DNA of 32,000 bases from an archaeon (GCA_024277355.1 JAJRVL010000002.1:1-32000), one strand, 5' to 3'; numbered from the stretch's first letter, positions 4,437-27,228 are shown. Notes: generated from the sequence alone by a model not told the origin. Numbers and translations are program-made.

Positions 4437-4440
4437 TTTA

Positions 4441-5406: not shown

Positions 5407-5451
5407 AGGAAAGCATTAAATATTTTGAAATCAATTATTGTTTGTGGTTTT

Positions 5452-5832: not shown

Positions 5833-5925
5833 TTAAAATAACCTTTCTTCATTATTATTTATGTTGTACAAAAAATTGAATTCTGTTTTTTCTATTTTCT
5901 TATATATTTTTATTGAGGCTGTTAA

Positions 5926-9770: not shown

Positions 9771-9836
9771 TTTTAACACCTTTTTCTATAATTATTGTTT
9801 TTGAATTAATAAACTTTTGTTTTTGTGTTTTTTCAG

Positions 9837-11663
9837 TTAAATCCTGCTTACTTCTTTTATTCCTTCAATTTTATTTATTTTTTCAAGGATTTTTCCTATG
9901 GTTTGTGGTTTTTTTGTTTTAAGTGTTATAGTGCAGTTCACTGTTTTGTTTTCTACTTTTGCATTAGTTGAAATTATTTTTCCTTTTAATGAAGTAACTG
10001 CATCAAGTATTTCTGTAAGTAAGTTTACTTTTTCTTTTGCCTGAATTTTTATTTTTGTATTTAATTCTTTTTGGCCGATCATTTTCCAGTTTATTGGAAT
10101 TATTTTTTTTCTGTTTTCTCTTTTAAGGTTTACACAGTTTTCGTTATGAACGATTAATTTTCTTTTTGTGGTTTTTATTGCAAAAATTTTGTTTTCAGGA
10201 AGCGGATTACAGCATTTGGCTATTTTAATTGATTCAATTATTTTTTTTGATATTTCTGGTTTTATTATTTTTGGTTTTACTTCTTGGGATATTTTTAATA
10301 TTTGTTTTATTTTTGCTTTAGCTTTTTTTGTTTTTACCATCACTAACCATTGTCTTTTTGGAAACTGTTTTTTTGAAGTTATTATTTCAACTAAATCTCC
10401 GTTTTCCAGTTTATGGTCTAATTTTACTATTTTGCCGTTTACTTTTGCTTTTTCACATTTGTTTCCCATGTTTGAGTGAACTGCATAAGCAAAATCTAAT
10501 GGTGTTGAATCAGGAGTCAGTTCAATTATGTCGGCTTTTGGTGTTAAAGTAAATATTTTTTTTTCTTCAAATCTTAATTTTAATGTGTCAAGTATTTTTT
10601 TTGTTTTATTTTTTCTGTGCCATTCAATTAATTCTTTTGCCCATGTTAATTTAGAGTCAAATTCTTTGTCTTTTTTTACTTCTTTGTAGGCCCAGTGTGC
10701 AGGAAGGCCTTCTTCTGCTTCTGCGTTCATTTCAAAGGTTCTTATTTGTGTTTCAAATATTTTTTTATCTTTGGTTTTTAAGTCTGTGTGGATTGAACGG
10801 TAATTATTTTTTTTTGGGGTTGCAATATAATCATCAAATGAGTTAAGCAGTGGTTCATACATTGAATGGATTATGCCTAAAATTAAATAACATTCTTTTA
10901 TTGTATTGCAGAGTATTCTCACTGCAATTAAGTCATGTAATTCGTTTGCTTTGCAGTTTTTTTTCTTCATTTTACTGTATATTCCGAAAAAGTTTTTGGT
11001 TCTGCCGATTATTTTTGCATTTATTTTATCGTCTTTAAATCTTTTTTTTATTTCATTAATTATTTTTTTTAAGTCTGTTTCTCTTTCTTTTCTTTTCTTT
11101 TTTAATGCTCGTTTTAGTTTGTTGTATTCTTTTGGGTGTTCAATTTTAAATGCTCTGTCTTCTAACTCCCATTTTATTTCATTTAATCCAAGTTTTTGGC
11201 TGATTGGAAGATATACTTCTCTTATTTTTTTTGCAAGAATTTTATCTGGTTCTTTTACATTTCTTAATTCAGATAATTTTAATGAAAGTGCAATTATTAT
11301 TGTTCTGATGTCTTTTGTTGTAGCAAGAATTATTTTGCTTAATGTTTCTGAAGAAAAATTTTTGCTTTGGGATTCAATTTTTTTTATTTTTCTTAGCTCT
11401 TCAACAATATTTGTTATGTCTTCATTGAATTCTTTTGTTATTTCTTCTTTTTTTGTTTTGGTTTCGCATAAAAATGTTGCAGCTAAAGGGTTTCCTTTTA
11501 TTCCTAATGAATTCAGAATATAAGCGCTGTTTAATGAATTTTGAAATTGCTTTTGATCAATAATTTTATCTGAATATTCTATTGCTTTTTTTATTTGAGA
11601 GTAATAAGGTCCTTTTTTTATTGAGTTCTTGAATTTTTCAACTGAAATGTTTTCATATTCCAT
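9837..11663 (-). CDS. long RelA/SpoT homologue (RSH): degenerate HD domain - synthetase - TGS - Cys-rich (ZFD/CC) - ACT
   Basis: Synthetase motifs GRTKNFFGIYSKM, HDLIAVRIL, NYRSIHT, ETQIRTFEMNAEAEEGLPAHWAYKE. TGS domain IFTLTPKADIIELTPDSTPLDFAYAVHSNMG...GDLVEIIT. CC motif AKCCNPLPENKIFAI...VHNENCVN. ACT-like C-terminus. The hydrolase HD/ED residues are replaced (TFLCETKT where LLHDvvEDT is expected; LSLKLSELRN where ADRLHNMR is expected). Confidence 0.85.
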   Translation of the reverse strand: MEYENISVEKFKNSIKKGPYYSQIKKAIEYSDKIIDQKQFQNSLNSAYILNSLGIKGNPLAATFLCETKTKKEEITKEFNEDITNIVEELRKIKKIESQSKNFSSETLSKIILATTKDIRTIIIALSLKLSELRNVKEPDKILAKKIREVYLPISQKLGLNEIKWELEDRAFKIEHPKEYNKLKRALKKKRKERETDLKKIINEIKKRFKDDKINAKIIGRTKNFFGIYSKMKKKNCKANELHDLIAVRILCNTIKECYLILGIIHSMYEPLLNSFDDYIATPKKNNYRSIHTDLKTKDKKIFETQIRTFEMNAEAEEGLPAHWAYKEVKKDKEFDSKLTWAKELIEWHRKNKTKKILDTLKLRFEEKKIFTLTPKADIIELTPDSTPLDFAYAVHSNMGNKCEKAKVNGKIVKLDHKLENGDLVEIITSKKQFPKRQWLVMVKTKKAKAKIKQILKISQEVKPKIIKPEISKKIIESIKIAKCCNPLPENKIFAIKTTKRKLIVHNENCVNLKRENRKKIIPINWKMIGQKELNTKIKIQAKEKVNLLTEILDAVTSLKGKIISTNAKVENKTVNCTITLKTKKPQTIGKILEKINKIEGIKEVSRI

Positions 11664-12516: not shown

Positions 12517-12536
12517 AAATGCAGTTAACTGCATTT
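12517..12536. terminator. perfect 20-nt palindrome between convergent tpiA and the pilin gene (bidirectional terminator candidate)
   Basis: AAATGCAGTT|AACTGCATTT, flanked by an A-run on the left and T's on the right. It overlaps the last codons and the stop of the pilin gene. Confidence 0.5.
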
Positions 12537-12977
12537 TCCAATTAATCCTTTGTCGCCTAACTGTACTAATCCATTGACTTTCTTTGAATTGTAAGTAAAT
12601 GAAACATTGTAGTCAAATCCGCTTCCTGCGTTTCCGCATGCAGTTAATCCTGTTAATGAAACTAATTCAGATTCGCCTGCGTTAAATGAAACACTTGAAC
12701 TTAATCCGGCTATTCCGTCAATGTTTAAGTCAGTTAAAGTCAGTTTGTTTGCTGAAATATTCTGCACTTCAATTTCTGCTGTTGTTCCGCTGAATTTGAA
12801 TTCCTTTATTGAGAAAGGAGAAGTGCTTTGCCAGTATGCTCTTGACTGTTGTTCGGTTAATCCTCCTGTTAATCCAGGAACCCAACCCATTACACCTACA
12901 ACAACTAATGCAATGACAATTATTACTGCAAGAATAATTAAGTATTCTGTTGTTCCTTGTGCTTTTCTTCCAATCAT
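12525..12977 (-). CDS. archaeal type IV pilin-like protein with class III signal peptide (candidate major pilin)
   Basis: MIGRKAQG|TTEYLIILAVIIVIALVVVGV: a short basic leader ending in G, an acidic residue shortly after, then a ~20-aa hydrophobic helix, followed by a Ser/Thr/Gly/Asn-rich beta-type domain. It has the strongest SD in the locus (GGAGG plus an 8-nt spacer) and is the last gene of the operon. Confidence 0.8.
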   Translation of the reverse strand: MIGRKAQGTTEYLIILAVIIVIALVVVGVMGWVPGLTGGLTEQQSRAYWQSTSPFSIKEFKFSGTTAEIEVQNISANKLTLTDLNIDGIAGLSSSVSFNAGESELVSLTGLTACGNAGSGFDYNVSFTYNSKKVNGLVQLGDKGLIGKCS

Positions 12978-13038
12978 TTTTTTTTCCTCCTTTTAGATAA
13001 ATATTATAGCTATTATTTAGTGTCTTTTTATTTATAAC
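12978..13038 (-). promoter_or_regulatory. pilin upstream region: GGAGG SD (12986-12990) plus A/T-rich TATA-like boxes
   Basis: The minus strand reads GTTATAAATAAAAAG...AGCTATAATATTTATCTAAAAGGAGGAAAAAAAAATG. The SD is clear. Which TATA-like element, if any, is used cannot be decided from the sequence. Confidence 0.35.
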
Positions 13039-13047
13039 TTTTTCTGA

Positions 13048-13977
13048 TTAGACAATTGAAAGAAATCCTGAAATTACTGTTTTAAATGCTGTAAAAAGAA
13101 TAAATGATGCAATAAAAATTATTGGAGAATACTTTAATCCCAATTTTATTTTTCTTTCAGTTAAAACTCCTATAAATAAACTTGCAAGAATTGAATTTCC
13201 TAATAATAAAATCACTGCAATATTGTGCATGAAATTTGAAGTTATTACGATTTCTGCACTAAGAAAACCAATATTAAGGCTTTCATCAACTGCACTTTGT
13301 CCTTGAATTGAATTAATCATTTCAAGGAACTGAACGGAAATTGACATCAACAAAGGGGTTGCTACAACTATTACAAATAAAACAAATAACACATACATTT
13401 TTGTTCCTGAAATCATTTCTTTTTTCATTTCCTGTGTTTTTGATATGTCTTCTGAGCTTGCTTCAAGCAGTTTAGCCAGTTTTCCGCCGGACCTCATGCT
13501 TTCAGAAAGAAATGCAACGCTTTCTTTTAGAATTCTTGAATCAATTTTTTCGGATAATTGTTTTAATGAATTTCTGAATGAGTCTATTCCTAAACTTTTT
13601 GTGCTTATTGTTTTTATTTCTTCAGCTAAAGGGCCAAATTCTTCTCTTGAACTGTTTTTAAATGCACTAAAAGGAGTCATTCCAGATCTTAAGTTTGATG
13701 CAACTAATAAAAGAAAGTCTGGAAGGACTGTTTCAACTCTTTTTACTCTGTCGTCAATTTGGTGTTCTAAATGAAAATAATAAATAAATTCAGTTAAAAT
13801 AAAAAGAATTATTCCTAAAATAAATGAAAATAATATTTGAATTGTGAATTCATTTAATGAAAAATATTTACCTAAACTTAATGGAATTAAAAAACCAATT
13901 ATAAAAAACAATAATGCAAGCATTATTCTTTTACCTAACCATTCATCTATGTCTTCGTTTATCCCTGCATAATCCAT
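13048..13977 (-). CDS. type IV filament platform protein, single T2SSF (FlaJ/TadC-like) domain
   Basis: 309 aa. N-terminal TM segments, then a cytoplasmic helical domain (VETVLPDFLLLVASNLRSGMTPFSAF...LSESMRSGGKLAKLLE), then C-terminal TM helices, which is the T2SSF topology. The reading frame stays open for 31 codons upstream of the ATG (to 14070). Confidence 0.8.
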   Translation of the reverse strand: MDYAGINEDIDEWLGKRIMLALLFFIIGFLIPLSLGKYFSLNEFTIQILFSFILGIILFILTEFIYYFHLEHQIDDRVKRVETVLPDFLLLVASNLRSGMTPFSAFKNSSREEFGPLAEEIKTISTKSLGIDSFRNSLKQLSEKIDSRILKESVAFLSESMRSGGKLAKLLEASSEDISKTQEMKKEMISGTKMYVLFVLFVIVVATPLLMSISVQFLEMINSIQGQSAVDESLNIGFLSAEIVITSNFMHNIAVILLLGNSILASLFIGVLTERKIKLGLKYSPIIFIASFILFTAFKTVISGFLSIV

Positions 13978-14042
13978 TTTAATTAAAATTTTTTTTCTTG
14001 TTTTTTCAGGAATGATTTCTGAAAGTCTTTTTTGTATTAATT

Positions 14043-14927
14043 TTATAAAATCACCTTTGGTTTTCTGTTTTTAACAAAACCAATTAATATTATTTGAACT
14101 ATAAATGCAAATAAAATTGTAATAATTACATGCATTTCAGATATGTCTGATCCTCCAAAAGAAGAAAGAATTATCATAAAAGTAATTCCTAAAGTTGGAA
14201 TTGCGGCAGCTAAAAGCAGATACATTAAAATCCATAAATTTAGTTCAGCTGAATAATTTTTTATTGCTCTTAATTGATTTGCAGTTAAAGTGTTAATTGC
14301 AGTTTCTAATGCACCTGCAACACTTGCCCCGCTTTTAATTGATGCAGTAATCTGCCAGGCAGCTTTTTTCATGTATTCTGATTTTGTTTTTAATGCAAGT
14401 TTTTCTAATGCTTTTGCTTCAGAGATTCCTGAATTAATGTCCTGAATTAATTCATTGAATTCTTCTGATACTATCCCATAATCTGCTTTAGCAATGTTTT
14501 TTATTGTGTTAAATAAAGGTATTCCTGATTTAACCTGAATTAACATGCTTTTTAATGCAAAAATTAAGTTTTGGTCAATTCCAAAAGCAATTCTTTTTGA
14601 AATTATTCCTGGATAAATAATATGCAAAAAGAAAAATAACACAAAAAACATTATTCCTGCAATAACATTTAATGGAAATGCGTTTGCAATTATTCCGTCT
14701 CTTAAAAAAATAAGGGCAGTTAAAAAAATAAAGAAAAAAATCCCGTAAATTAATCCAGATAAAAAACTTGCAGTAAGATACTCTTCAGTGCTTATATTTA
14801 ATTCTGCTTTTTTTATTTCATATTTAACTCCGACAAAAACTTTCTGAAAAAAATCTCCAATAAATAAAATTCGTTTATTTAATTTTTTAGCCTGTTCGAT
14901 TGAAAACAACATGAATTTTACTCTCAT
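14043..14927 (-). CDS. type IV filament platform protein, single T2SSF (FlaJ/TadB-like) domain
   Basis: 294 aa. TM helices flank a cytoplasmic helical domain (IFALKSMLIQVKSGIPLFNTIKNIA...ITASIKSGASVAGALE), and it ends in TM helices. It is a paralogue of the downstream gene. Confidence 0.8.
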   Translation of the reverse strand: MRVKFMLFSIEQAKKLNKRILFIGDFFQKVFVGVKYEIKKAELNISTEEYLTASFLSGLIYGIFFFIFLTALIFLRDGIIANAFPLNVIAGIMFFVLFFFLHIIYPGIISKRIAFGIDQNLIFALKSMLIQVKSGIPLFNTIKNIAKADYGIVSEEFNELIQDINSGISEAKALEKLALKTKSEYMKKAAWQITASIKSGASVAGALETAINTLTANQLRAIKNYSAELNLWILMYLLLAAAIPTLGITFMIILSSFGGSDISEMHVIITILFAFIVQIILIGFVKNRKPKVIL

Positions 14928-14936
14928 TTTTTATCA

Positions 14937-16187
14937 CTACATTTTATTGAAGTCAAGTTTTTTTCCCACTGCTTCCAGAACTAAATCCTTGTTGCTGTAA
15001 TATTTGTTCATTACTTCTCCTACTTTGTTTACGTCATTTATTTTTTTTTCTATCATCCATTCAAGGATTGTTTTTCTTTCTTCTAAATCTTTAGTTATTT
15101 CCTGTTCGGTTAATCCTGTGTGTAAATTTAATTCTCCGTAAAATTTTGTTGGTTCATCTATTTTATCCCAGGTGTCTGTTCTTGGGCTCCATCTGTAAAT
15201 TGTGTTAATTGAAATGCTTCCTTCGTGGCTTCCTGTGTCTATTTCGCTTATTTCCATTGTTCTTCTTTTGTTTGTTTTTCTGTCTCTGTATTGAACTAAA
15301 ACTAAATGTAATGCTTCAACTTCTAATGCAGGAATTTCAATTGGCGGTTCAGTTAATCTTCTGACTAACTGCATTCCTGAATCGGCATGCATTGTTGAAT
15401 AAACTGAATGTCCTGTATGCATTGCTTCAAATAATACTTCTGCTTCTTTTCTTTGCCTCATTTCTCCTAAAATTATTCTGTCTGGACGCATTCTTAATGC
15501 AGACATCATTAAGTCAAACATGCTTATTTCTCCTACGCCTTCTGGGTTAGGGTTTCTTGTTGTTAATGGAACCCAGTTCCATTTTAAGTTTTCAGGAAGA
15601 ACTAGTTCTCTTACATCTTCTATTGTAATTATTCTGTGGTAATTTGGAATCATTGCACATAAAGTGTTTAGTGCAGATGTTTTTCCTGAGGCGGTTGAAC
15701 CTGCTACCATTAAATTCATTTCATAATGCAGTGCCATCCACAAAAAGGCAGCCATTTCTGAGTTCATTGTGTGTTTTTCAGGAGAAATAAAGTCTGTTAT
15801 AGTCCAGGGTCTTCTTGAAAATTTTCTTATTGTAATTGTATTGCCTAAAGATGAAACAGGAAATAATGTTGCATTAACTCTGTCGCCTGTAATTAAATGT
15901 GCGTCAAGAATTGGATTTAAGTTTGTTATTTCTCTTCCGATTTTTCTTGCAATTTGTGCAGCATAATTTTCAATTAATTCTTCTGATTCAACATTAATGT
16001 TTGTTTTAAGCCAGCCAAATTCTCTGTGATACACTGCAATAGGTGTCTTAGATGAATTAATTGTAATTTCTTCTAATAAGTCATCTTTAATTAATACTTC
16101 TAATTCTCCCATTCCATACATTTCATGCAGTAAAATTCCTGCAAGTTTTGTTGTTGTAGATTTTTCATTTTCAGGAAAATATTTCAT
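14937..16187 (-). CDS. FlaI/TadA/VirB11-family type IV filament assembly ATPase (core as delimited by the first ATG)
   Basis: Walker A GSTASGKTS, Walker B/Asp box RPDRIILGEMR, His box GHSVYSTMHA. The true N-terminus almost certainly lies upstream (see feature 16188-16448 and the finding). Confidence 0.9.
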   Translation of the reverse strand: MKYFPENEKSTTTKLAGILLHEMYGMGELEVLIKDDLLEEITINSSKTPIAVYHREFGWLKTNINVESEELIENYAAQIARKIGREITNLNPILDAHLITGDRVNATLFPVSSLGNTITIRKFSRRPWTITDFISPEKHTMNSEMAAFLWMALHYEMNLMVAGSTASGKTSALNTLCAMIPNYHRIITIEDVRELVLPENLKWNWVPLTTRNPNPEGVGEISMFDLMMSALRMRPDRIILGEMRQRKEAEVLFEAMHTGHSVYSTMHADSGMQLVRRLTEPPIEIPALEVEALHLVLVQYRDRKTNKRRTMEISEIDTGSHEGSISINTIYRWSPRTDTWDKIDEPTKFYGELNLHTGLTEQEITKDLEERKTILEWMIEKKINDVNKVGEVMNKYYSNKDLVLEAVGKKLDFNKM

Positions 16188-16448
16188 TAAAGTTTTATTT
16201 ACTATTTGTATAAATTTTTGTTTTAATTTTAAGTTTTCTTCTTCTGAGTCAATTGAAACACTTTTTGCAATTTCGTCTTTTATTTCTTCAAGGAATTTTT
16301 TTGTTGAATAGTCTGCTTTGTCAAATTCAAGGAAATATAAAGGGCGTTTTTCTTTTTCTATTGTTTTTATTTTAACTGTTGCATTTGATTCTTCTTTTAT
16401 TTCGTATGTGTTTATAGTTTTAGTTGCTTTAATTAATTTTTTTTTTCT
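16188..16448 (-). other. 87 in-frame sense codons upstream of the ATPase ATG with no ATG/GTG/TTG; probable N-terminal domain of the ATPase
   Basis: My manual translation reads RKKKLIKATKTINTYEIKEESNATVKIKTIEKEKRPLYFLEFDKADYSTKKFLEEIKDEIAKSVSIDSEEENLKLKQKFIQIVNKTL, running directly into MKYFPENEK. An in-frame TGA sits at 16449-16451. The frame is -1 relative to ORF 16433-16660 across the A10 run at 16437-16446. Confidence 0.65.
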
Positions 16449-16660
16449 TCAGGAATTTCCTGTTCAAGTCTAATAAAAGGTTTAGATAAAACATTTGCGG
16501 GATAAATTACATTTAATATTCCTGTTTTTTCCATTACTTTTGCTGTTAATTCAACTTTGTTTTTTTCCCAGTTTAATTGTTTTGATATTTGTTCAATTGA
16601 AAGCTTTTTTTCGTCTTTAAGCAGTTCAACCATTTCACTTATTTTTGTTTTTAGTATCAT
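16433..16660 (-). CDS. small winged-helix-like protein, or the N-terminal module of the ATPase if the frames are joined
   Basis: 75 aa: MILKTKISEMVELLKDEKKLSIEQISKQLNWEKNKVELTAKVMEKTGILNVIY. This helix-turn-helix-like pattern is my inference and is not verified. The ORF ends inside the A10 run (GAA GAA AAA AAA AAT TAA). Confidence 0.55.
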   Translation of the reverse strand: MILKTKISEMVELLKDEKKLSIEQISKQLNWEKNKVELTAKVMEKTGILNVIYPANVLSKPFIRLEQEIPEEKKN

Positions 16661-16702
16661 TTTTTTCCCTTCAGCAATAATACTGTTTTTTTATTAATAA
16701 AT

Positions 16703-17569
16703 CTAACTAAACTGTTTTAGTTCCATTAATGAATTGGAATTTAAGTCTGTTTGAATGTAATTTAAGTCAATGTCTGCATAAAGCTTTAAGCTTGAATTAA
16801 AGTCAATTGCAGGCATAATTGATTTAAATGAAAGATTAATTTTATTTTGGTTGATTGTTTCATTTTCAATTAACATTGCATTATTTTTTCCTTTAAAAGT
16901 CCCAATATTAATTTTAATTTTGTCGTCTCCGTCAGCTGAAAAAATTATTTCTATTTTGTTTTTTAAAGTTGAATCCATTAATAATATTTCATGTTTTTCG
17001 TTTAATGCATTTCCATCAATATAATTAAAGTTTACAATTAAATCAGGGTTTAATGCATTTAATGGTCTTGAAACAGAAACCGAACTTCCTGAAACAGTTA
17101 AATTTAAATCCATTGAAGTCATGTTTGTGTCTCCTAAAGCATAAAAGAAAACTGAATTTTTGTTTGGAGTAAAATCATATTCGTAAACTAGTTTATTGCT
17201 GAATTTTAATGGAATATTTTGGTTTAATCTGTCAACATTAATTTTAATTGAAGAATTATTTATGGCAGAATAACTTGTTTCAGCAAACTCTTTCATTTTT
17301 ATGATTCTCTGCATTTTATTGAAATCTGAAGGAATTATTTCATTAAAAGTTATTTCAAGATTATTTCCTTTATTTACTTTAATGGAAGTTCCTAAAATTT
17401 TGTTTAAGTCAAAACTTAAATCATCTTTAATAAATTCCATTTTAGAATATTTTTTTATTTCTCCTGATGAATAATTTCTTGAATTAACATTTTCTAAATA
17501 AAACATTGAAAATAAAAGCATTGAAGAAAGTAAAAGAATTGCACTAAAGCTTATTACATACCCTTTCAT
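16703..17569 (-). CDS. pilin-like/pilus-associated protein with prepilin-type N-terminus (288 aa)
   Basis: MKG|YVISFSAILLLSSMLLFSMF followed by an Asn/Ser/Ile-rich beta-type domain. Its start overlaps the upstream stop (ATGA at 17566-17569). I recognise no family. Confidence 0.6.
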   Translation of the reverse strand: MKGYVISFSAILLLSSMLLFSMFYLENVNSRNYSSGEIKKYSKMEFIKDDLSFDLNKILGTSIKVNKGNNLEITFNEIIPSDFNKMQRIIKMKEFAETSYSAINNSSIKINVDRLNQNIPLKFSNKLVYEYDFTPNKNSVFFYALGDTNMTSMDLNLTVSGSSVSVSRPLNALNPDLIVNFNYIDGNALNEKHEILLMDSTLKNKIEIIFSADGDDKIKINIGTFKGKNNAMLIENETINQNKINLSFKSIMPAIDFNSSLKLYADIDLNYIQTDLNSNSLMELKQFS

Positions 17570-17982
17570 TTTTTCACCTTAAACCAGGCTTTTAATTCAG
17601 CCCAATAAAATTTTTCTCCATAAAAAAAACTTCTTTTAGTTGAAATTTCAGTTAAAGCATTTTTTTTGCATCCTTTTTTTGAAGTAGTATTTAATGCACT
17701 TGAATTATTATCATAATCATATATATTTAATTCAAAACACAAATTTTTTGTTGTTTTATTTAAGTATTTTGAGATTTCTTTGTTTTTGTTTTCTTTTACT
17801 GCTTCTTCAAATTTCCCGCTTTTTTCTAATACAGTTAAAACATCCTCTGAAATTAATGCTAATTTAGTTTCATTTAATGAACTGAATTTGCTTTCAGCAA
17901 AATTTCCGCTTATTGCTACAAGCAATGCAAAAGAAATAATTAATGCAATTACTGCATCAATTGAAATAATAAACCCTTTCAT
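17566..17982 (-). CDS. minor pilin-like protein with class III signal peptide (138 aa)
   Basis: MKG|FIISIDAVIALIISFALLVAISG. It shares an ATGA start/stop overlap with the gene on each side. Confidence 0.65.
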   Translation of the reverse strand: MKGFIISIDAVIALIISFALLVAISGNFAESKFSSLNETKLALISEDVLTVLEKSGKFEEAVKENKNKEISKYLNKTTKNLCFELNIYDYDNNSSALNTTSKKGCKKNALTEISTKRSFFYGEKFYWAELKAWFKVKK

Positions 17983-18482
17983 TTAAACACTCCGAAAATA
18001 AATTTTCTTTCTTTTTCATTTAACAAAACATATCTTTCAATTACAATTGTTTTGTTTTCAGCTGAAGGAAAAACTCCGAATTGTTTTAATGGTTGGTCGT
18101 TCATTGAAGTTACTTTAAAATAAAAATCGTATTTTTGTAAACCTAAAATTTCTTTTATTTCATTGTATTTAGCTGCATTTAAGTCAATTAATTTATTTAC
18201 TTTATTTTCATCTAAAATATTTCTTTCTTTTGCTAAGCCAATTGAATTAATGTTTAAGTCATTTAATGTTTCCCAGGAATTTGGCTGGCCTGAAGTCGAA
18301 ATTAAAATTTGAGATGCATTAACTGCTTTTTCCTGCATTTCAAAATAATATTCTTCTTCATTAAGTGAATTCTGAATTAAACCAAAAGATGAAAATGAAA
18401 TAACTAAAATAAAAATTAAAGCAGTAAAAGAAACAATAAAATCAGTGGTAAAAACCTGCCCTTTACAGTTCTTCAATTTCAA
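17979..18482 (-). CDS. minor pilin-like protein with class III signal peptide (167 aa)
   Basis: MKLKNCKG|QVFTTDFIVSFTALIFILVISFSSFGLI. Confidence 0.65.
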   Translation of the reverse strand: MKLKNCKGQVFTTDFIVSFTALIFILVISFSSFGLIQNSLNEEEYYFEMQEKAVNASQILISTSGQPNSWETLNDLNINSIGLAKERNILDENKVNKLIDLNAAKYNEIKEILGLQKYDFYFKVTSMNDQPLKQFGVFPSAENKTIVIERYVLLNEKERKFIFGVFK

Positions 18483-18506
18483 TCACTCCCTTTATGTTTT
18501 CTATTC

Positions 18507-18974
18507 TTATTTCATTTGCATTAACTTTTGAAATAAAAATAATTTTTTTGTTAAAAGTGAAGTTGAAATAAACTGGCCTTGTCTGAATTTTATTTTAACG
18601 GAATTTTCTTCAAATTCAATTTCAAAATCATAATTTTTTGTTATTATTGTTTTGCTTCCTTCTCCTGAAATATAAATGCCGTTAATGTTTCTTGCAATTT
18701 TTTCGCTTAAGGTTTTTGCTTTGATTTTTTCTGAATTAAAATCAATGTTTTTTTTTTGTTCAACTGAAACTGCAACAACTAAAGAAAACATTAAGAAGAG
18801 CAAAACAAGAGTTATTACAAATTCAGCTGAAATCTGCCCTCGCGGTTGCGTCCGCGAGTAACGCGTGCTATCTGCGATAGCACTGATTTTATTTCCGCTT
18901 TCGAGCGGGAGAACCGAGGCACGATTTCGCTGTTGCTCAATCCTGCTGTCATACTTTTTTGTTTTTTTTTTCAT
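18507..18974 (-). CDS. minor pilin-like protein with an atypically long, GC-rich leader (155 aa as drawn)
   Basis: The pilin-type motif PRG|QISAEFVITLVLLFLMFSLVVAVSV starts only at residue ~45. The only in-frame canonical start is the ATG at 18974. The leader codons are GC-rich and atypical for the window. Confidence 0.6.
   Translation of the reverse strand: MKKKTKKYDSRIEQQRNRASVLPLESGNKISAIADSTRYSRTQPRGQISAEFVITLVLLFLMFSLVVAVSVEQKKNIDFNSEKIKAKTLSEKIARNINGIYISGEGSKTIITKNYDFEIEFEENSVKIKFRQGQFISTSLLTKKLFLFQKLMQMK
18839..18908. other. three tandem GC-rich hairpins (candidate structured RNA / cis-regulatory element)
   Basis: CTCGCGG-ttgcgt-CCGCGAG (18839-18858), GTGCTATC-tgc-GATAGCAC (18865-18883), CCGCT-ttcg-AGCGG (18895-18908). 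All stems are perfect and sit in a local GC-rich island (about 18836-18950) within an AT-rich background. The existence of the hairpins is certain; their function is unknown. Confidence 0.5.
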
Positions 18975-18979
18975 TTATT

Positions 18980-21163
18980 TCACGGAGTCCTTTGAACAAT
19001 ATTAATATCATCAACATAAAAGTAATCTCTTCTGCCGCTCATTCCGGCATCAAATGCAATTCTAAAGTTGTTTGACAAAGGATATGCATTTAAGTCAAAT
19101 GAATAAAAATGATAAGTGTTGTCTGAGTCAGCTGAAGTAAAAATTTTTATTATAGTCCAGATAAACCCGTTAGAAGAAATGCTAACTCTTGTGGTGTCTC
19201 CTGATTCAAATGAATTAACTTTAGCCCAAAATTCCAGTCTTGGATTAGTATACGCACTTAAATCAACTGCTCTTTCAGCATATCCTGTGCTTCTTCTTAA
19301 TCTTAAATGATTTGGAGAACTATAAGGGGTTCCTCCGCTTCTGATTGAACTGTCTCCTGAATGAGTCCATGCATTTAGCCATCCTGTTCCTGAACTCCAG
19401 CTTGTATCAGGGAAAGTGTGGAATGCAATTATTATTGGGCCAGTTGAATTAATTATTATGGTTCTGTTTTCATCACTGCTTCCTGTATTTGGAACTGAGT
19501 AATCATCAGTGCAGTTTACATCCCAATAATAAGTTCCGTTTGAAGCAAAAGTTTTAGTAAAACTTTGAGTAATTCCTTCAGTTATTGAATTGTCTGTTTG
19601 GTCTATTATTCCATTAATAATCAATTCACAAAAATTAATTCCTGAATCAACATCATTTACCGTATAGTCAAACTGAACACTAAAACTGTTTGAAGTATAA
19701 CCTGTTGCAGGGCTTTCAAGCATTATTGTTGGCGGAGTGCTGTCTATTGTATAATAAGTTGAAGTAGTATAAGTGCTTCCGTCGCTAAATTCAAATGTAA
19801 TTCTAAAGTATTCTCCGTCATTATTAACTATTTCATCAAATCTTAATTCATTTCCTCCGCTAAAAGAAGTTGACGCATTAATTGTAAAATCTGTTACATT
19901 AATCCATTCTCCTGCATTTGCTGTTCCGTTCCAATAATCAGTTCCATCAAATCTTACTCTTTCTATAATAGCTGAATCCTGATCTGTTTCATTCCAGTCC
20001 CATACAATAATTCTTGAAATTGTAAGGCTTGTATTAATACTGGTGTTTTCTATTGTCCAGTTTCTTAATCTGTCTCCACCTCCATTAAATGACGCAGTAC
20101 TCCATGAGAAATTAAAGTTGTCTGACATATTGCTGACAGTAACATTTAATGAAATAAAATCTGAATTAATTCCATCTGAAGCAGTAACAGTTCCTGTGTC
20201 ACTGTTTGAACCCAAGGGAACATCAATAGTAACTGTAATTTGCTGGCAAGTATTTCCTGTTAAAGAATTAATTGTTGGAATTGCCTGAACCCAATCTCCT
20301 GCGTCTCCATTAGATGAAGTAAAAACAATATTAGTTAATGCAGTTGAAGTTGTATTGCATACTTGAAAGTTATTTGAATCTGAATAACCTGAATCAATTG
20401 AAGGACTCCATAAATCAGGAAAAATCATTAAAGGCTGGTTGCTTTCTCCGACAATTACTTCTAAAGTTAAAGGAACAATTATTTGTTTTGCTCCGTCAAT
20501 TGTATTTACATCAAAAATTAATTCGCCTGAATAATTTCCTACAGCAAATAAATTAGAAGTAAAATTTAAATCAATTCCAGTGTTTGAGTCAGCAGGAACA
20601 ACAAAAGAATTACTGCTTAATTGCAAAGTAACATTAGCTGAAGTCCAGACATAACTAACTGAAACACTTGCGTTTCCGCTTGTATTATTTATTACTTTAA
20701 TATTTTCTATTGCACTTGTATTCTGTGCTATAGTTGAATAAATACTTCCTTTGTCTGTTTCAATTTGAATATCTCCAATTAAAACATAACCTTCATAAGA
20801 AGTAATCCAAATCCAATGGCCCCCTGATTCAGTTGGAATGCTTCCTGTTACTTCAACTTGTGATTCAGAAATTACATCTGTTCCATTAATGTTTAGTCTT
20901 ATTGTTTTGTCTGAAATTGAACTTTTGTTTTCATCTATTCCTGATGGAATTGAAATAAAAATTTGTTTTTTTGTTCCAGGGCCAGAAACGAAAACTTCGT
21001 TAGCTGTACTTGCAAGTTTATTAACTGTATTTTGTGCTTCAGAATTTGCTTTAGCATAATTAATTGAAGTTATTTCATTGTTTGATACAGAAATAATTAA
21101 TCCAAGTACTACCATTGAAACTGCAAGAATAATTAATAATTCAACTGACGCCTGCCCTTTCAT
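18980..21163 (-). CDS. large pilin-like surface protein / candidate tip adhesin (727 aa) with class III signal peptide
   Basis: MKG|QASVELLIILAVSMVVLGLII, then a Ser/Thr/Asn/Gly-rich beta-type sequence. It includes an Ig-like segment (DSTPPTIMLESPATGYTSNSFSVQFDYTVNDVDSGINFCEL) and a C-terminal jelly-roll-like segment (LEFWAKVNSFESGDTTRVSISSNG...DYFYVDDINIV). I counted about two dozen N-x-S/T sequons by hand. Confidence 0.75.
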   Translation of the reverse strand: MKGQASVELLIILAVSMVVLGLIISVSNNEITSINYAKANSEAQNTVNKLASTANEVFVSGPGTKKQIFISIPSGIDENKSSISDKTIRLNINGTDVISESQVEVTGSIPTESGGHWIWITSYEGYVLIGDIQIETDKGSIYSTIAQNTSAIENIKVINNTSGNASVSVSYVWTSANVTLQLSSNSFVVPADSNTGIDLNFTSNLFAVGNYSGELIFDVNTIDGAKQIIVPLTLEVIVGESNQPLMIFPDLWSPSIDSGYSDSNNFQVCNTTSTALTNIVFTSSNGDAGDWVQAIPTINSLTGNTCQQITVTIDVPLGSNSDTGTVTASDGINSDFISLNVTVSNMSDNFNFSWSTASFNGGGDRLRNWTIENTSINTSLTISRIIVWDWNETDQDSAIIERVRFDGTDYWNGTANAGEWINVTDFTINASTSFSGGNELRFDEIVNNDGEYFRITFEFSDGSTYTTSTYYTIDSTPPTIMLESPATGYTSNSFSVQFDYTVNDVDSGINFCELIINGIIDQTDNSITEGITQSFTKTFASNGTYYWDVNCTDDYSVPNTGSSDENRTIIINSTGPIIIAFHTFPDTSWSSGTGWLNAWTHSGDSSIRSGGTPYSSPNHLRLRRSTGYAERAVDLSAYTNPRLEFWAKVNSFESGDTTRVSISSNGFIWTIIKIFTSADSDNTYHFYSFDLNAYPLSNNFRIAFDAGMSGRRDYFYVDDINIVQRTP

Positions 21164-21213
21164 TTTAAACCATAATTATAACAGAAAACTCTTTATTATA
21201 CTTTTTCAGTGAT

Positions 21214-21435
21214 TTAATAAAGAGTACTTAATACTTTTTTTGCTTTGGAATAAGTCCAGAAAGTTGCACCTAAAGCACACATTGAAACAAAATAAAAGAC
21301 AACAGCTGAGAATTCATATCCTGCAATTTGTGCTAAAATTCCTTCAAGAAAAGTTAAAATTGAAAAACTTATAAGTAATGCTCCGCTTAAAAGAAAAAAA
21401 GCAACTTTTATTCCTTGTTGTAATACACTATCCAT
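21214..21435 (-). CDS. small membrane protein, two predicted TM helices (73 aa)
   Basis: Hydrophobic stretches VAFFLLSGALLISFSILTFL and AVVFYFVSMCALGATFW. It lies 9 nt downstream of the KaiC-like gene on the same strand. Confidence 0.5.
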   Translation of the reverse strand: MDSVLQQGIKVAFFLLSGALLISFSILTFLEGILAQIAGYEFSAVVFYFVSMCALGATFWTYSKAKKVLSTLY

Positions 21436-21444
21436 AAAACCAAC

Positions 21445-22440
21445 TCAAAATATTTCTATGTCTGCATAAATTTTTATGCCTTCCTTTTCAAAATTTAATG
21501 CACAAACCTTGTTTGTGTGTTTGGTTCCGCGCATTTTAAGTATTTCAAGTGAATGAACTCTTACATCTTTTTCTTCTTTTTTTTCATAATATAATGAAAT
21601 TACTGCATCAACTAAAAATCCCACTGAACCTTTTGCTGTTTCAGCTTCTTTTGGAGACATTTCGCTTATAATTATTGAAGTACAGTTCCATTTCCTTAAT
21701 AACTCAAAAAATTTCAAAATGTTTTCTCTTTGCTGGTATTCGTCTCTGAATAATAAAGAATAAGATGTAATTGAATCAATTACTAATCTTTTGGCTCCCA
21801 TTTGATTTATTGCATCTCTTATTGGCCCGCCACCCTGATCTAATAATCTTCCAACCTGATGCGGTTTGTATTCAAGAACTCTGAATAAACCTTTTTTTTC
21901 TAAGTCTTCAAAATCCCAGCCATATTCTGCGTTATGCCTGTAATATGATTCTTTGCTTTCTTCAAAGCTGATTAATATTCCTGGTTCATTGTATTTTACG
22001 GCTCCGTAATATAAAAACTGTAATCCAAAAGTAGTTTTTCCTGTTCCTGCACTTCCTGCAACTAAAACAGTTGAATTTTTTTCTATGCCTCCTTCAATTA
22101 ATTCATCAAAACCAAAAATGCCTGAAGGAATTCTTTCTAATTGGTTTAATTTTTTTACTGGTTTTTTTGGTTCATTGAATTCGTTTGTTTTTTCTTCAGT
22201 TTTTATTTCTTTAATTGATTTGTCTTTTTCTGTTTTTGATTCAGTTGTTTCTAATTCTTTTTTTGTTTCTTCATTTAATGTTTTAATTGGTTTTTCTTCT
22301 TTTTTTGTTAGTTCTTTTTTTGAAGGGATTTTTGTTTCAAGTTCAGCAATGCTTGGTTTTTCTTTTATTTCTTTTTCTGACTTAATTTTATTTTTTTTTA
22401 AGTCAAGATTGCTTTCAATTACAACTTTTTTTTTTTGCAT
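21445..22440 (-). CDS. KaiC/FlaH-like RecA-superfamily ATPase with a ~105-aa Lys/Glu/Thr-rich N-terminal extension
   Basis: The C-terminal ~225 aa carry GIFGFDELIEGGI, Walker A GSAGTGKT, the KaiC-type ISFEES, Walker B RLVIDSITS and LKMRGTKH. The N-terminus is low-complexity (KKELTKKEEKPIKTLNEETKKELETTESKTEKDK). It is a paralogue of 9027-9770. Confidence 0.85.
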   Translation of the reverse strand: MQKKKVVIESNLDLKKNKIKSEKEIKEKPSIAELETKIPSKKELTKKEEKPIKTLNEETKKELETTESKTEKDKSIKEIKTEEKTNEFNEPKKPVKKLNQLERIPSGIFGFDELIEGGIEKNSTVLVAGSAGTGKTTFGLQFLYYGAVKYNEPGILISFEESKESYYRHNAEYGWDFEDLEKKGLFRVLEYKPHQVGRLLDQGGGPIRDAINQMGAKRLVIDSITSYSLLFRDEYQQRENILKFFELLRKWNCTSIIISEMSPKEAETAKGSVGFLVDAVISLYYEKKEEKDVRVHSLEILKMRGTKHTNKVCALNFEKEGIKIYADIEIF

Positions 22441-22612
22441 TATTCTTCACTTTTTCCTTTAATAAAAAGAGTATTATTCTTTAAATAACTGTTTGTTTTT
22501 GCGTCTAAACAAAAAAAGACAACTTTTTTTTCAGATAAAAAAACAGCATGACTGAACAAAGTGAAGTCGTGCATCGTGCTTAAACGGTGAAACGTTTAAA
22601 AAAAAGAAAAAG

Positions 22613-22635
22613 AAAAAAGGCAGGGTGCCTTTTTT
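22613..22635 (-). terminator. hairpin plus T-run directly after the stop of the 119-aa membrane protein gene
   Basis: AAAAAAGGCA-ggg-TGCCTTTTTT. On the minus-strand RNA the stem is followed by a long U-rich tract. Confidence 0.5.
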
Positions 22636-22994: not shown

Positions 22995-23120
22995 TTTTTC
23001 CCTCCTTTTTTGTTTAAATTAAAAACAATTTATTATATGGATTTCTCATTTCTCATTTAAATTCTTTTGCTTTTAGAATTTTCTTGTTTTTTCAGTAAAA
23101 AAAGAGTAAAATTAGAATAA

Positions 23121-23396
23121 TGCAGGCGTGTTTTGAAGTCGAATTAAAACCGAAAATTAAATTAGCCCTTGAATGCTCTAGCTTCCGTTGCTCCCAAAAG
23201 CATTAAACAATAAAATTTCCGCTGCACCCTTCCAGGCCTGACGGGTTGACTTTAAGGCTTAATCTTAGGGGACAGAAGTTCATTGAAACAACCAAGGATT
23301 TAATTTCCTGAATTAAATCCTTCCCCAAAACTTCGGCTCCTGCTAAAGCAGATTTCAGGTAACAGAGAACTGCTAACTCTCCAGCCTAGCCTGCAG
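23121..23396 (-). ncRNA. signal recognition particle RNA (archaeal 7S-type SRP RNA)
   Basis: The minus strand contains the helix-8 core GUCAGGCCUGGAAGGGUGCAGCGG (compare the conserved SRP motif AGGxCxGGAAGGxAGCA). The Alu-domain 5' part GGCUAGGCUGGAGAG...CUGUUACCUGAAAUCUGC...GGAGCCGAAG resembles archaeal SRP RNAs as I recall them. There is a perfect 12-bp hairpin AAGGAUUUAAUU/AAUUAAAUCCUU (helix-6-like) and terminal pairing UGCAGGC/GCCUGCA. The region is GC-rich relative to its flanks. The ends are approximate, within about 5 nt. Confidence 0.85.
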
Positions 23397-23451
23397 TAAA
23401 AATATTAATAAAAAAGGTTTAAAAAGATAAAAAACCAAGTTATTTGGTTTT

Positions 23452-23853
23452 ATGAGTGATGTAAAAGGAGCTGCAAAAAATGCAGCAAAAGCAGAAGGAA
23501 AATTAGCAACTGAAATAGCTAAATGGACTGCAAAAAAAGCAGCAGTTTTGGCAATTGCAGGAGCTGTTGGAATCACAGGATTAAGTTTAGCAAATTTTAC
23601 AATAACTCAACTTGATGCATTAATAAGACTTGGAGGTAAAGCAGGTTATCATTATAGTGCAGGGCAAGTTTTTGTTGATGCAAAAACAAAAACACAAAAT
23701 GCACAAAAACTAAAAAAACAATGGAGAGCTTTTGTTGAAAACCAGTCTAATAAGAAAGTACCTCTAAAACACCCTTATGGAAAAGCAGCATTAGGTATTG
23801 CAGGATTAGCTGCATTTAAAGCAAGAAAAAAATGGCGAAAGATGAGAAAGTAA
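23452..23853 (+). CDS. hypothetical Ala/Lys-rich protein with one central hydrophobic segment (133 aa)
   Basis: Long ORF with unusual composition (AAKNAAKAEGKLATEIAKWTAKKAAVLAIAGAVGITGL) and a basic C-terminus KARKKWRKMRK. I recognise no family and there is no clear SD. Confidence 0.5.
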   Translation: MSDVKGAAKNAAKAEGKLATEIAKWTAKKAAVLAIAGAVGITGLSLANFTITQLDALIRLGGKAGYHYSAGQVFVDAKTKTQNAQKLKKQWRAFVENQSNKKVPLKHPYGKAALGIAGLAAFKARKKWRKMRK

Positions 23854-25130: not shown

Positions 25131-25149
25131 TTAATATTATGTGTTTTTT

Positions 25150-26949
25150 ATGATTAAAACTCAGAGAATGAGCCGAATTAGAATAACTGGTCCAAAAAAC
25201 AACATGAAAAAACTAATTGGTGAACTGCATTCACTTAAATTAATGCATTTAATTGACTATAAAGGAAAAGACTTTGAAACAGGAAATTCTTTTGCTGAAG
25301 CAGAACAGGTTTCAGATAAATTAGTTAAATTAAGGTCAATGATAAGTCATTTTAATTTGGATTTAAAGCCAAGAATAATAAAAGACCTTAAAGTATGTAA
25401 TGGAAAATTCAGTGAAATTCATTTAAAATACATGGAATTAAATCAGGAAATTTCTGTTTTAACTGAAGAAAAATCTTTATTAAATTCAAAAAAACAATCA
25501 ATTGAACCTTTTTCTTCACTTAACTTAAATTCAAATCATTTTTTTGGATTTAATTCAATTACTGTGTTTAAAGGAACAGTAAAAAAACCTTTAACTGAAC
25601 AGGAAATAAAACAAATAACAAATGAATTTGAATTTTTTTCTTCAGTTTATAAAGGAAAAAACATTATTGCTTTGTTTATTCCGAACAAAAACAAAGAAAA
25701 AATTCATTTACTTTTATCAGAATATGGTTTTAATGAATTAAATTTTGAAGAAAACTCTGATTTAAATCAAATTAATTCAGAATTAAATTCAGTTGAAAAA
25801 AAACTTTCTTCTTTTAATTCTCAATTAAATTCATTGAAAGAAAAAGAAGGACAGTTTTTGGTTGACTTAGAATATAATTTAGAAAAAGAAAATGAAAAAC
25901 TTGAAGCGCCCTTAAAATTTGCTGTAACCTTAAATGCTTTTGTTATTGATGGCTGGGTTCCTGAAAAAAAAGCAAAAGAAATAAAAGAAAAACTAAAAGT
26001 TTTAACTAAAGATAAAATTTTCTTTGAAGAATTAAAAGACAAAAAAAATGCTCCAATAGCAATGGATAATCCTTCAATGGTTAAACCATTCCAGTTTTTT
26101 TTGAATTTGTATTCTCTTCCAAAATACACTGAATTAGATCCAACTTTCCTTGTATTTATTACTTTCCCGTTATTTTTTGGTTTTATGTTAGGGGATGTAG
26201 GTTATGGAATTGTTACTTTACTTGCATTTATTTTTTTAAGAGGAAAACTAAAAGGAGAAGCAAGACTTTTAGTTAGTTCTTTGATTGTTGCTTCTTTAGC
26301 TACAATATTTTTTGGTTTTATTTTTGGAGAAGCATTTGGATTTGAATTTGTTGAACATCCAATTCTTAACAGAGCGCATGACTTAAATACAATGCTTTTA
26401 ATTTCAATTTTAGTCGGCATAATTCACATTACTTTTGGTTATATTATTGGATTTTATAATGTTTTAATTCAGCATGGACTAAAAGAAGCAGTGTTAGAAA
26501 AAGGATCTTGGTTGATGATTGAAGCAGGAGGATTACTTGTATTATCTGAAATGATTTTAGGAATGACTTCTTTTGGAAATATTGCCGGAGGACTATTGTT
26601 GTTTTTAGGAATTGTTTTGCTGTTTAAAGGAGAAGGAGTCCAGGGAATAATTGAATTGCCTGCGATTTTAAGTAATACTTTGTCTTATGCAAGGCTTTTT
26701 GCTGTTGGGTTAGCTTCAGTTAAATTAGCAGTAATAATAAATGAGTTTGCAACAGAATTCTTTAATCAAGGCGGAATTTTCATTGTAGCATCAGTTTTAA
26801 TTCTTTTGCTTGGACATTTTGTTAATATACTATTAGGTTTAATAGGGCCTTTTTTGCATTCATTAAGGCTTCATTATGTTGAATTTTTTGGTAAATTCTA
26901 TAAAGGCGGAGGAAAACCATTTCTGCCTTTTGGAGTTGAAAAAAATTAA
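25150..26949 (+). CDS. atpI: A1Ao ATP synthase subunit I (a-subunit, stator/proton channel)
   Basis: ~600 aa. An N-terminal cytoplasmic coiled-coil half (MSRIRITGPK...) is followed by a C-terminal polytopic half containing LSYARLFAVGLAS (with the conserved Arg) and LHSLRLHYVEFF. Confidence 0.9.
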   Translation: MIKTQRMSRIRITGPKNNMKKLIGELHSLKLMHLIDYKGKDFETGNSFAEAEQVSDKLVKLRSMISHFNLDLKPRIIKDLKVCNGKFSEIHLKYMELNQEISVLTEEKSLLNSKKQSIEPFSSLNLNSNHFFGFNSITVFKGTVKKPLTEQEIKQITNEFEFFSSVYKGKNIIALFIPNKNKEKIHLLLSEYGFNELNFEENSDLNQINSELNSVEKKLSSFNSQLNSLKEKEGQFLVDLEYNLEKENEKLEAPLKFAVTLNAFVIDGWVPEKKAKEIKEKLKVLTKDKIFFEELKDKKNAPIAMDNPSMVKPFQFFLNLYSLPKYTELDPTFLVFITFPLFFGFMLGDVGYGIVTLLAFIFLRGKLKGEARLLVSSLIVASLATIFFGFIFGEAFGFEFVEHPILNRAHDLNTMLLISILVGIIHITFGYIIGFYNVLIQHGLKEAVLEKGSWLMIEAGGLLVLSEMILGMTSFGNIAGGLLLFLGIVLLFKGEGVQGIIELPAILSNTLSYARLFAVGLASVKLAVIINEFATEFFNQGGIFIVASVLILLLGHFVNILLGLIGPFLHSLRLHYVEFFGKFYKGGGKPFLPFGVEKN

Positions 26950-26974
26950 TATTTAATTAAAGGAGGAATATAAC

Positions 26975-27208
26975 ATGGTTGAATTAGAATTAGGATTGAT
27001 TGCAATAGGAGCAGGAATTGCAATTGCAGGAAGCGCTTATGCTGCAGCAATAGCAGAAAAAGAAATAGGAACTGCCGCAGTGGGAGCAATGGCTGAAAAA
27101 GAAGAATTATTTGGTAAAGCATTAATTTTAACAGTAATTCCAGAAACATTAGTCATTTTCGGTTTAGTTATTGCAATAATGATTTTAGGTTTAGCTCCGG
27201 CGCACTAA
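26975..27208 (+). CDS. atpK: A1Ao ATP synthase subunit K (c/proteolipid, single hairpin)
   Basis: 77 aa with two hydrophobic helices and the ion-binding Glu in IPETLVIFGL. An AAGGAGG SD lies upstream. Confidence 0.9.
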   Translation: MVELELGLIAIGAGIAIAGSAYAAAIAEKEIGTAAVGAMAEKEELFGKALILTVIPETLVIFGLVIAIMILGLAPAH

Positions 27209-27228
27209 AATCTAAAAGGTTTTAACAA

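Follow-up and report, generated by a model that had tools for sequence, protein, structure and literature searches.

The 32,000-nucleotide (nt) stretch of DNA analyzed here (GCA_024277355.1, JAJRVL010000002.1:1-32000; hereafter, the window) carries on its minus strand, at positions 12525-22440, a compact gene array which, judged from its sequence, is probably (at a probability of roughly 0.75) the operon by which a DPANN archaeon builds a type IV pilus without a role in motility. Because dozens of related genomes contain the cassette too, the locus is no new kind of machine but an ordinary example of a DPANN variant of archaeal type IV pili that is widespread, though experimentally uncharacterised. 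It holds the core of the type IV filament superfamily, i.e., an assembly ATPase of the PilB/FlaI/VirB11 family, T2SSF platform proteins and class III-type subunits with a hydrophobic helix. Gene identities, conserved cleavage-type motifs, a gene order shared among DPANN phyla and, for one subunit (protein A), the fold were established. An earlier note on this DNA had named a FlaI/TadA-type ATPase, two single-domain T2SSF genes and a KaiC-like ATPase, and all of them were recovered by Pfam (T2SSE, T2SSF twice and KaiC).

The organism's domain was settled as Archaea by an archaeal signal recognition particle (SRP) RNA in the window (23120-23396, minus strand; Rfam RF01857, 133.7 bits), which lies upstream of the array together with the gene for a membrane protein of 119 amino acids (aa). 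Its closer affiliation is deduced from relatives that carry the label Diapherotrites or Micrarchaeota.

For comparison, we employed the neighbourhoods of four ATPase homologues and 80 loci from species-representative genomes, all 80 being of DPANN origin except three records labelled Methanosarcinales, Methanobacteriota and Altiarchaeota. Related loci are labelled L001, L002 and so on, L001 being a syntenic close relative (77%-related). Iterated hidden Markov models built on these loci via hmmsearch alignments defined the presumed major pilin and five further pilin-like families, A to E, each with around 40-50 members.

Organization of the gene array

The twelve consecutive minus-strand open reading frames (ORFs) listed in the earlier note were all found in place by mechanical ORF prediction, with gaps of 5-70 nt or overlaps of 4 nt between neighbours, and both of the ATGA start/stop overlaps that it had reported were read in the sequence (AAAAAATGAAAGGG at 17566-17569 and TTTAAATGAAAGGG at 17979-17982). 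The real number of genes, however, is 11 and not 12, because a 75-aa ORF and the 416-aa ATPase ORF together make up a single frameshifted gene. Motifs resembling Shine-Dalgarno (SD) sequences, GGTG or GGAGTG, are located 5' of the C, D and E starts; the C gene begins with TTG, and its SD-like motif reads GGGAGTGA. The GC content across the locus is about 24-34%.

The array is bracketed by two minus-strand hairpins that resemble terminators and are followed by T-runs. One (22635-22613) comes after the preceding gene, immediately upstream of KaiC, and the other (12536-12517) lies at the stop of the pilin gene, the last of the unit. Between the first hairpin and the KaiC gene, an AT-rich stretch may contain the promoter and SD region of the unit. 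A sigma-70 promoter scan, which is uninformative for an archaeon, returned 37 sites against 50 expected.

Class III signals and the pilin-like families

A FlaFind-like rule ([KRQN][GA] followed by 20 uncharged hydrophobic residues) was applied to the 68 window ORFs of at least 60 aa. Seven ORFs were flagged, all of them inside the locus, and the clustering of class III-like N-termini is therefore far from chance. These seven comprise the six precursors already claimed and, as a doubtful case, a 73-aa protein with two transmembrane (TM) segments. The leader pattern that had been proposed, [KR]-x0-1-G, did not hold for all six, since the major pilin has Q instead of K/R at position -2.

Each of the six families has its own N-terminal signature (Table 1). 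With regard to the relationships among them, hhalign identified A and B as paralogues (99.9%), B corresponding to the N-terminal part of A, and also paired C with D (97.9%), with E remaining unpaired; the globular part of the pilin resembles an immunoglobulin (Ig)-like domain of A (97.5%). The D alignment is characterized by G|FxxS(L/I)DA, an LEKSG motif, a Cys pair that is often kept and a C-terminal Y.A....W motif. For E, an exhaustive profile search retrieved 139 clusters, nearly all with proteins of 270-295 aa, the few named ones being assigned to an uncultured archaeon or to Micrarchaeota. An AlphaFold2 (AF2) model of E (predicted local distance difference test score, pLDDT, 73; predicted TM-score, pTM, 0.70) consists of an N-terminal helix and an alpha/beta-rich domain. 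The pilin is 79% identical to its L001 copy and has an identical mature N-terminus; it reached 20.1 bits against the Class_IIIsignal model PF04021, i.e., below the cutoff of 23.7, and 24 of the 42 members of its family match this model.

For a class III signal, B has an unusually long leader: a basic stretch of 46 residues (18837-18974, minus strand) precedes PRG|QISAEF, compared to 29 in the L001 copy. No alternative canonical start closer to the cleavage motif was found in this gene.

Table 1. Features of the pilus locus and its upstream region (window coordinates)
Feature	Coordinates	Strand	Evidence and characteristics
Upstream intergenic region	22441..22635	-	Hairpin AAAAAAGGCACCCTGCCTTTTTT followed by a T-run at 22635-22613, ending the preceding gene
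KaiC-like single-domain ATPase, first gene of the unit	21445..22440	-	PF06745, 6.8e-60; K/E-rich N-terminal extension of ~100 aa
73-aa protein, two TM segments	21214..21435	-	Homologues in only 5 loci (close relatives, L002 and L012)
Family A, adhesin-like, 727 aa	18980..21163	-	MKG|QASVE; [KR][AG]|QxSxE, with E at +5 in 32/36 members
Family B, minor pilin-like, 155 aa	18507..18974	-	...PRG|QISAEF; A-like signature, with E or D at +5 in 33/41 members
Family C, minor pilin-like, 167 aa	17979..18482	-	MKLKNCKG|QVFTTD; [KR]G|QxF[ST]xD, with D at +6 in 36/40
Family D, minor pilin-like, 138 aa	17566..17982	-	MKG|FIISIDA; [KR]G|FxxSxDA, with D at +6 in 36/39
Family E, minor pilin-like, 288 aa	16703..17569	-	MKG|YVISFS; [KR]G|[FY]xx[TS]..., lacking a conserved acidic residue close to the N-terminus
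PilB/FlaI-family assembly ATPase, ~574 aa when read through	14937..16660	-	ORFs 16433-16660 and 14937-16187
A10 homopolymer with frameshift	16437..16446	-	Sequence and three-frame translation
TadB-like platform protein, 294 aa	14043..14927	-	One T2SSF domain, Pfam 5.9e-14
TadC-like platform protein, 309 aa from the first ATG	13048..13977	-	One T2SSF (PF00482) domain, Pfam 1.1e-13
Presumed major pilin, 150 aa, two Cys	12525..12977	-	MIGRKAQG|TTEYLIILAVIIVIALVVVGVMGW; family signature [QK]G|[QTA]TEYL

Distribution of the cassette among DPANN archaea

The gene order A-B-C-D-E-ATPase-TadB-TadC(-pilin) is recurrent across the related loci, often with a KaiC gene nearby. Among the 55 loci with at least 4 kb of upstream sequence, 42 contained at least three of the A-E genes, and the pair of TadB and TadC genes was located downstream of the ATPase gene in 56 of 63 loci. 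The cassette was found in Iainarchaeia, Micrarchaeota, Aenigmatarchaeota, Woesearchaeota, Nanoarchaeota, Parvarchaeota and Altiarchaeota, with at least six DPANN phyla represented; it is the commonest type IV pilus cassette of DPANN archaea.

This distribution contradicts the description of the locus as atypical or undescribed. Indeed, Fig. 2A of Makarova et al. 2019 (PMC6393860) depicts DPANN 'dark matter' islands in which FlaI, TadB and TadC are accompanied by unannotated signal-peptide proteins 'suggested to be diverse pilins', and as described in that paper these islands are the same kind of locus as the one studied here. Compared by description, the islands are presented there with generic 'diverse pilins' only, whereas five ordered families, their signatures and a mobile adhesin domain are defined here. 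Some genomes harbor two cassettes of minor-pilin and ATPase genes (L004 and L069), those of L004 (87-3490 and 4322-13816) being divergent around a KaiC gene.

The assembly ATPase and its frameshift

The ATPase ORF at 14937-16187 contains a T2SSE domain (PF00437, 2.6e-31), and the 245 nt that separate it from the 75-aa ORF are coding: the ATPase frame is open upstream past 16448 and reads ...KKKLIKATKTINTYEIKEESNATVKIK... The 75-aa ORF stops just past the A10 run, and the addition of a single A to this run restores the frame (...EEKKKLIKATKT...); in the intact L001 gene, a different, unshifted linker sequence occupies this position. The merged protein is 77-80% identical to homologues of 571-579 aa over 100% of its length. 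In line with a single gene, the family-invariant residues Y86, Y110, T121 and A133 are all encoded upstream of the start of the 416-aa ORF, which by itself would be devoid of around 158 N-terminal residues, these invariant positions among them.

The 75 N-terminal residues of the ATPase are winged-helix-like, and members of the family match the Pfam models HVO_A0114, DUF3489, MarR and HTH_24. PilB3_N was not detected in the ATPase, and PilB3_C reached 20.5 bits, under its cutoff of 27; the latter model matched 4 of 20 relatives, at E-values of up to 0.01. Compared to chains from the PDB (AfGspE, FlaI and CpaF), the closest relative was AfGspE (2OAP, A. fulgidus GspE2; 251 bits over residues 85-570), followed by FlaI (205-207 bits over 118-486) and CpaF (140 bits). 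More than 7000 homologues are detectable, the best of them in metagenome-assembled genomes labelled Diapherotrites or Micrarchaeota.

Among NCBIfam models, FlaI scored best with the ATPase (293 bits), which, together with the adjacent KaiC/FlaH-superfamily ATPase, would fit an archaellum (motility) locus. Yet this value lies well below the FlaI cutoff of 550, and the KaiC-like ATPase, formerly termed FlaH-like, is matched best by KaiC_arch_3 (155 bits) versus 34.6 bits for the ArlH model (cutoff 215) and 54 bits for the FlaH model (cutoff 194). No archaellin and no FlaF/G/C/D/E/X were found in the window by Pfam, ArlJ models gave 25-35 bits against cutoffs of 400-550, and the platform is split, not fused as in FlaJ. 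An archaellum is thereby effectively refuted, in agreement with the earlier note. The KaiC-like protein is presumed to be a regulator; of 30 related loci with complete flanks, 16 have a KaiC gene.

A split platform with a missing start codon

Among fused haloarchaeal platform proteins, the TadB profile gave its highest score with the N-terminal half. Consistency was only partial when TadB and TadC were assigned to the two halves of such platforms (N- and C-terminal, respectively). Splitting had been taken as a hallmark of bacterial Tad systems, which does not hold for archaea: pairs of tadC-like genes have been reported both for archaeal clade 1 (Epd), which also has at least five minor pilins and PilY-like adhesins, and for many clade 2 loci (PMC4858521), and a 2026 preprint (10.64898/2026.04.22.720090) defines its System 1, with DPANN among the hosts, by split platforms.

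Homologues of the TadC-like protein comprise 320-400 aa, and in the window the homologous coding sequence runs on upstream of the first ATG, in frame, without a canonical start. A 15-nt deletion with respect to L001 (window positions 13978-14047) removed the GTG start of this gene; a possible substitute is an ATA, which shares bases with the stop codon of TadB (ATAA in place of GTGA).

These two lesions raise the question of whether the locus is decaying and non-functional in this genome, which would be expressed both in the ATPase frameshift, leaving the longer ORF short of invariant positions, and in the lost TadC-like start. Errors in homopolymer length arise often in assemblies, and transcriptional slippage can rescue long A-runs. 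The frameshift could reflect mis-assembly, a gene that has recently become a pseudogene or a site dependent on slippage. All the other genes of the locus are intact and 57-79% identical to their L001 counterparts, with their motifs conserved, and the ATA codon could still serve as a start. We thus regard decay as a lesser, rather improbable explanation, and a pilus operon as the better one; on account of the one-base frameshift, the locus may still be inactive or mis-assembled in this assembly.

Adhesin-like protein A and a mobile ectodomain

The AF2 model of A, computed from an 18-sequence alignment, bears out the giant pilin-anchored adhesin proposed in the earlier note. It was obtained with a pLDDT of 85 and consists of an N-terminal helix (residues 2-59), tandem beta-sandwich domains and a C-terminal jelly roll (577-724), on which basis the 727-aa protein would be a pilin-anchored, multi-Ig adhesin-like protein. 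A Foldseek search with A retrieved only generic Ig/ASH-repeat proteins at low TM-scores, because the chain is flexible. A contains 24 N-glycosylation sequons compared to 15.7 in shuffled sequences; per 100 aa, A, D and E have 2.8-3.6 sequons versus 0.2-1.1 in most cytoplasmic proteins of the window (one has 1.6).

Among the homologues of A, internal domains have been gained or lost, and divergence is greatest at the C-terminus. Where A is short (about 135-150 aa), an ectodomain of 600-1600 aa is found on a D-type or E-type N-terminus instead. The former arrangement is present in L040, L041, L049, L052, L062, L064, L069, L074 and L076 (in L062, for example, a D-type KKG|LVFTLDA begins a protein of 1604 aa), and the latter in L020, L048 and L059. 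The adhesin module has thus moved between minor-pilin families in different DPANN lineages.

Relationship to characterized type IV pili

The Epd pilus of Methanococcus maripaludis (clade 1/System 1) is the experimentally characterised type of which the locus might simply be an orthologue. Both have a platform encoded by two genes, five or more minor pilin-like genes and adhesin-like proteins, in accordance with the clade 1 description (PMC4858521), and QxSxE signals with Q at +1, which here occurs in A, B and C, the PF04021-type QxSxE motif itself being found in A and B; furthermore, System 1 is reported in DPANN (10.64898/2026.04.22.720090). Set against these likenesses, the major pilin has 150 aa and an Ig-like globular part, unlike the Epd major pilin of about 70 aa without a globular domain, and EppA, MinD/FleN and DUF2341 were not detected by the Pfam scan of the window ORFs. 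The ATPase differs in its N-terminal winged-helix-like domain; this extended N-terminus and the PilB3_C-like C-terminus of some relatives are System 2 traits, and its best solved relative is an ATPase of clade 2. Orthology to Epd thus seems rather unlikely, and a DPANN variant of its own remains the preferred interpretation.

Likeness to clade 2/System 2, the group of the Haloferax PilB3C3 and PilB4-type systems, resides in the ATPase, which is nearest to AfGspE (AF0659) in the PDB, labelled clade 2, arCOG01817, in Fig. S4 of Makarova et al. 2016. It also resides in the large adhesin-like protein and in the KaiC gene, given that KaiC ATPases are reported to be associated with clade 2 and that System 2 is described as having extended ATPase N-termini, a fused platform and large adhesins (10.64898/2026.04.22.720090). 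The platform, however, is split here and fused in System 2, as it also is in L085 and L086. The locus appears, by its sequences, to mix System 1 traits (split platform and QxSxE precursors) with System 2 traits (an ATPase that resembles AfGspE and is extended at both termini, a large adhesin and KaiC).

Haloarchaeal loci differ further in gene order, the five pilin-like genes being upstream of the ATPase gene in our locus and downstream of it there. On a plasmid of Halobaculum halophilum (L086, NZ_CP058531.1, 7729-16210), five overlapping genes annotated as 'hypothetical' come after those for a PilB3-type ATPase and a fused platform; they encode DUF7287, DUF7288, DUF7261 (a sub-threshold match), DUF7266 and DUF7289. 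From this position, these Pfam families seem to constitute an accessory set for pili. Weak, sub-threshold matches to DUF7287, DUF7288, DUF7262 and DUF7311 were obtained with single DPANN members, among them one of family C with DUF7287 (5e-4). The DPANN A-E profiles revealed nothing significant in the five L086 proteins beyond the N-terminal helix; homology between both sets is possible. No match to Pilin_N/DUF1628 (PF07790) was found in the locus or in the pilin family, and a literature search on the names DUF7287, DUF7288, DUF7262 and DUF7311 found nothing.

With bacterial Tad/Flp systems, the locus shares the split platform and a CpaF-related ATPase. The TadA model TIGR03819 gave 164 bits, below its cutoff of 373, though, and no Flp-type pilin of 50-70 aa, secretin, TadZ or TadD-G was found; moreover, the organism is an archaeon. 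A functional analogy can also be drawn with the bacterial GspH-K and FimU-PilVWX-PilY1 sets, where an operon likewise encodes several minor pilins, one of them without the conserved acidic residue at the N-terminus, and a large adhesin is associated with the set. Neither in sequence nor in fold was a relationship to them detected, and in our locus the adhesin is itself a pilin fusion.

Points against a pilus and the pseudopilus alternative

Several observations weigh against a pilus operon. Families A-E had no significant match in Pfam or NCBIfam, and the model of E yielded no significant fold match in the PDB with Foldseek (best E-value 0.014); the case for A-E as pilins is consequently built on their N-terminal motifs, the gene context and a single structural model. 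A peptidase A24, i.e., a class III signal peptidase, was absent from the Pfam-scanned window ORFs, as the earlier note had already stated, and a scan of the 84 loci for the A24 GxGD-type motif found none. In this assembly, a frameshift interrupts the ATPase gene, and the ancestral start of the TadC-like gene is gone. The pilin gene lies 3' of TadC in only 27 of 54 loci, where it is sometimes duplicated. Finally, a capping role that may be ascribed to E rests on an analogy with GspK/PilX.

Part of this evidence would suit a short membrane-anchored structure that would display or export surface proteins, either a pseudopilus, as in the type II secretion system, or one like the Sulfolobus bindosome, in place of a long adhesive pilus. 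Five conserved minor pilin-like proteins recall GspH-K, the low frequency of an adjacent dedicated pilin gene points in the same direction, and the NCBIfam BasE model gave 144 bits. The BasE score is, however, far under the cutoff of 1000, Pfam revealed no substrate-binding proteins or ABC transporters in the locus, and the 150-aa pilin is conserved, with a near-invariant N-terminus, both here and in many relatives. The large Ig-rich A, in turn, looks like an adhesin stalk. Such a structure is therefore distinctly unlikely, and we maintain a pilus as the probable product of the locus.

Flanking genes

A second KaiC-family gene (2.1e-76) is located at 9027-9779 on the minus strand, 2.7 kb from the pilus locus, and relatives carry two to four KaiC paralogues around the cassette (L002, 634-2798; flanks of L006 and L007). 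For the 73-aa protein with two TM segments, no Pfam match was obtained. The neighbouring DUF1405 membrane protein was considered as the missing peptidase or a conserved partner and was dropped, as it adjoins the locus only in the closest relative. A mechanical ORF at 23373-23576 overlaps the SRP RNA and is probably spurious.

A full-length homologue of long RelA/SpoT proteins with HD_4, RelA_SpoT, TGS and ACT domains (608 aa) is encoded at 9837-11663 on the minus strand and is kept in L001 (15072-16901); (p)ppGpp enzymes of this kind are not known to be common in archaea. After the second KaiC gene, at 7456-8931 on the minus strand, lies a gene for a class II (D/K/N-type) aminoacyl-tRNA synthetase, whereas L001 has a class I LysRS-type gene (PF01921) in the syntenic place, at 17785-19392. 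The flanks of the locus (258-7455 and 25141-30711) contain a purine biosynthesis cluster (PurA, PurB, PurF, PurC, PurE and GuaA) and an A/V-type ATPase operon, and TIM is also encoded in the window. Given the purine biosynthesis genes, the RelA/SpoT homologue, TIM and the A-type ATPase, the organism seems less metabolically reduced than a typical obligate episymbiont, and obligate episymbiosis is not evident from this fragment.

Proposed mechanism and implications

We infer that a filament is formed, with A-E at its tip, an adhesive function and regulatory inputs, in the following manner. The six precursors, i.e., the 150-aa pilin and A-E, would enter the membrane; a class III signal peptidase encoded elsewhere would cut them after [KRQ]-[GA]. 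A hexameric ATPase of the PilB/FlaI family would dock on the platform, composed of a TadB-like and a TadC-like half, and drive the pilins into a helical filament. The minor pilins A-E would form a priming or tip complex; E, which has no acidic residue, could be the capping subunit, given that the bacterial proteins GspK and PilX lack Glu5. From this complex, A would display a glycosylated ectodomain of about 670 residues, made up of multiple Ig domains and the jelly roll, as an adhesin, and regulatory inputs might come from the KaiC-like ATPase and from the winged-helix-like domain at the N-terminus of the assembly ATPase.

The five conserved and ordered minor-pilin families, which are absent from Pfam and have their own N-terminal signatures, and the lineage-dependent position of the adhesin may be undescribed. 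The frameshift of the ATPase gene in this assembly may likewise be new. Going further, and tentatively, since we consider it less probable than not in its entirety, A-E could be a DPANN-wide module for pilus priming or for the tip, evolved independently of GspH-K and PilVWX-PilY1 and working like them, with an interchangeable ectodomain (on A here, on D or E elsewhere) as the determinant of host or surface recognition. As part of the same proposal, the system, with its split platform, QxSxE pilins and clade-2-like ATPase, may be near an ancestral euryarchaeal/Epd-type machine that gave rise to bacterial Tad pili.

DPANN archaea are abundant, mostly uncultured and often host-dependent, and the molecular basis of their attachment to surfaces and hosts is largely unknown. 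Thin filaments that 'could represent archaeal pili' have been described on a cultured Micrarchaeota archaeon (PMC11329633). Since the core machine is known and the locus type had already been noticed in surveys, the value of the present analysis is incremental and not surprising. The pilin-like components of this DPANN cassette, in turn, have been neither annotated nor studied, and what the analysis yields for use are five accessory families with diagnostic N-terminal signatures, a lineage-swapped Ig-rich ectodomain and a candidate major pilin. These are targets for annotation models, for cryo-electron microscopy of Micrarchaeota filaments and for the question of whether the adhesin sets host range.

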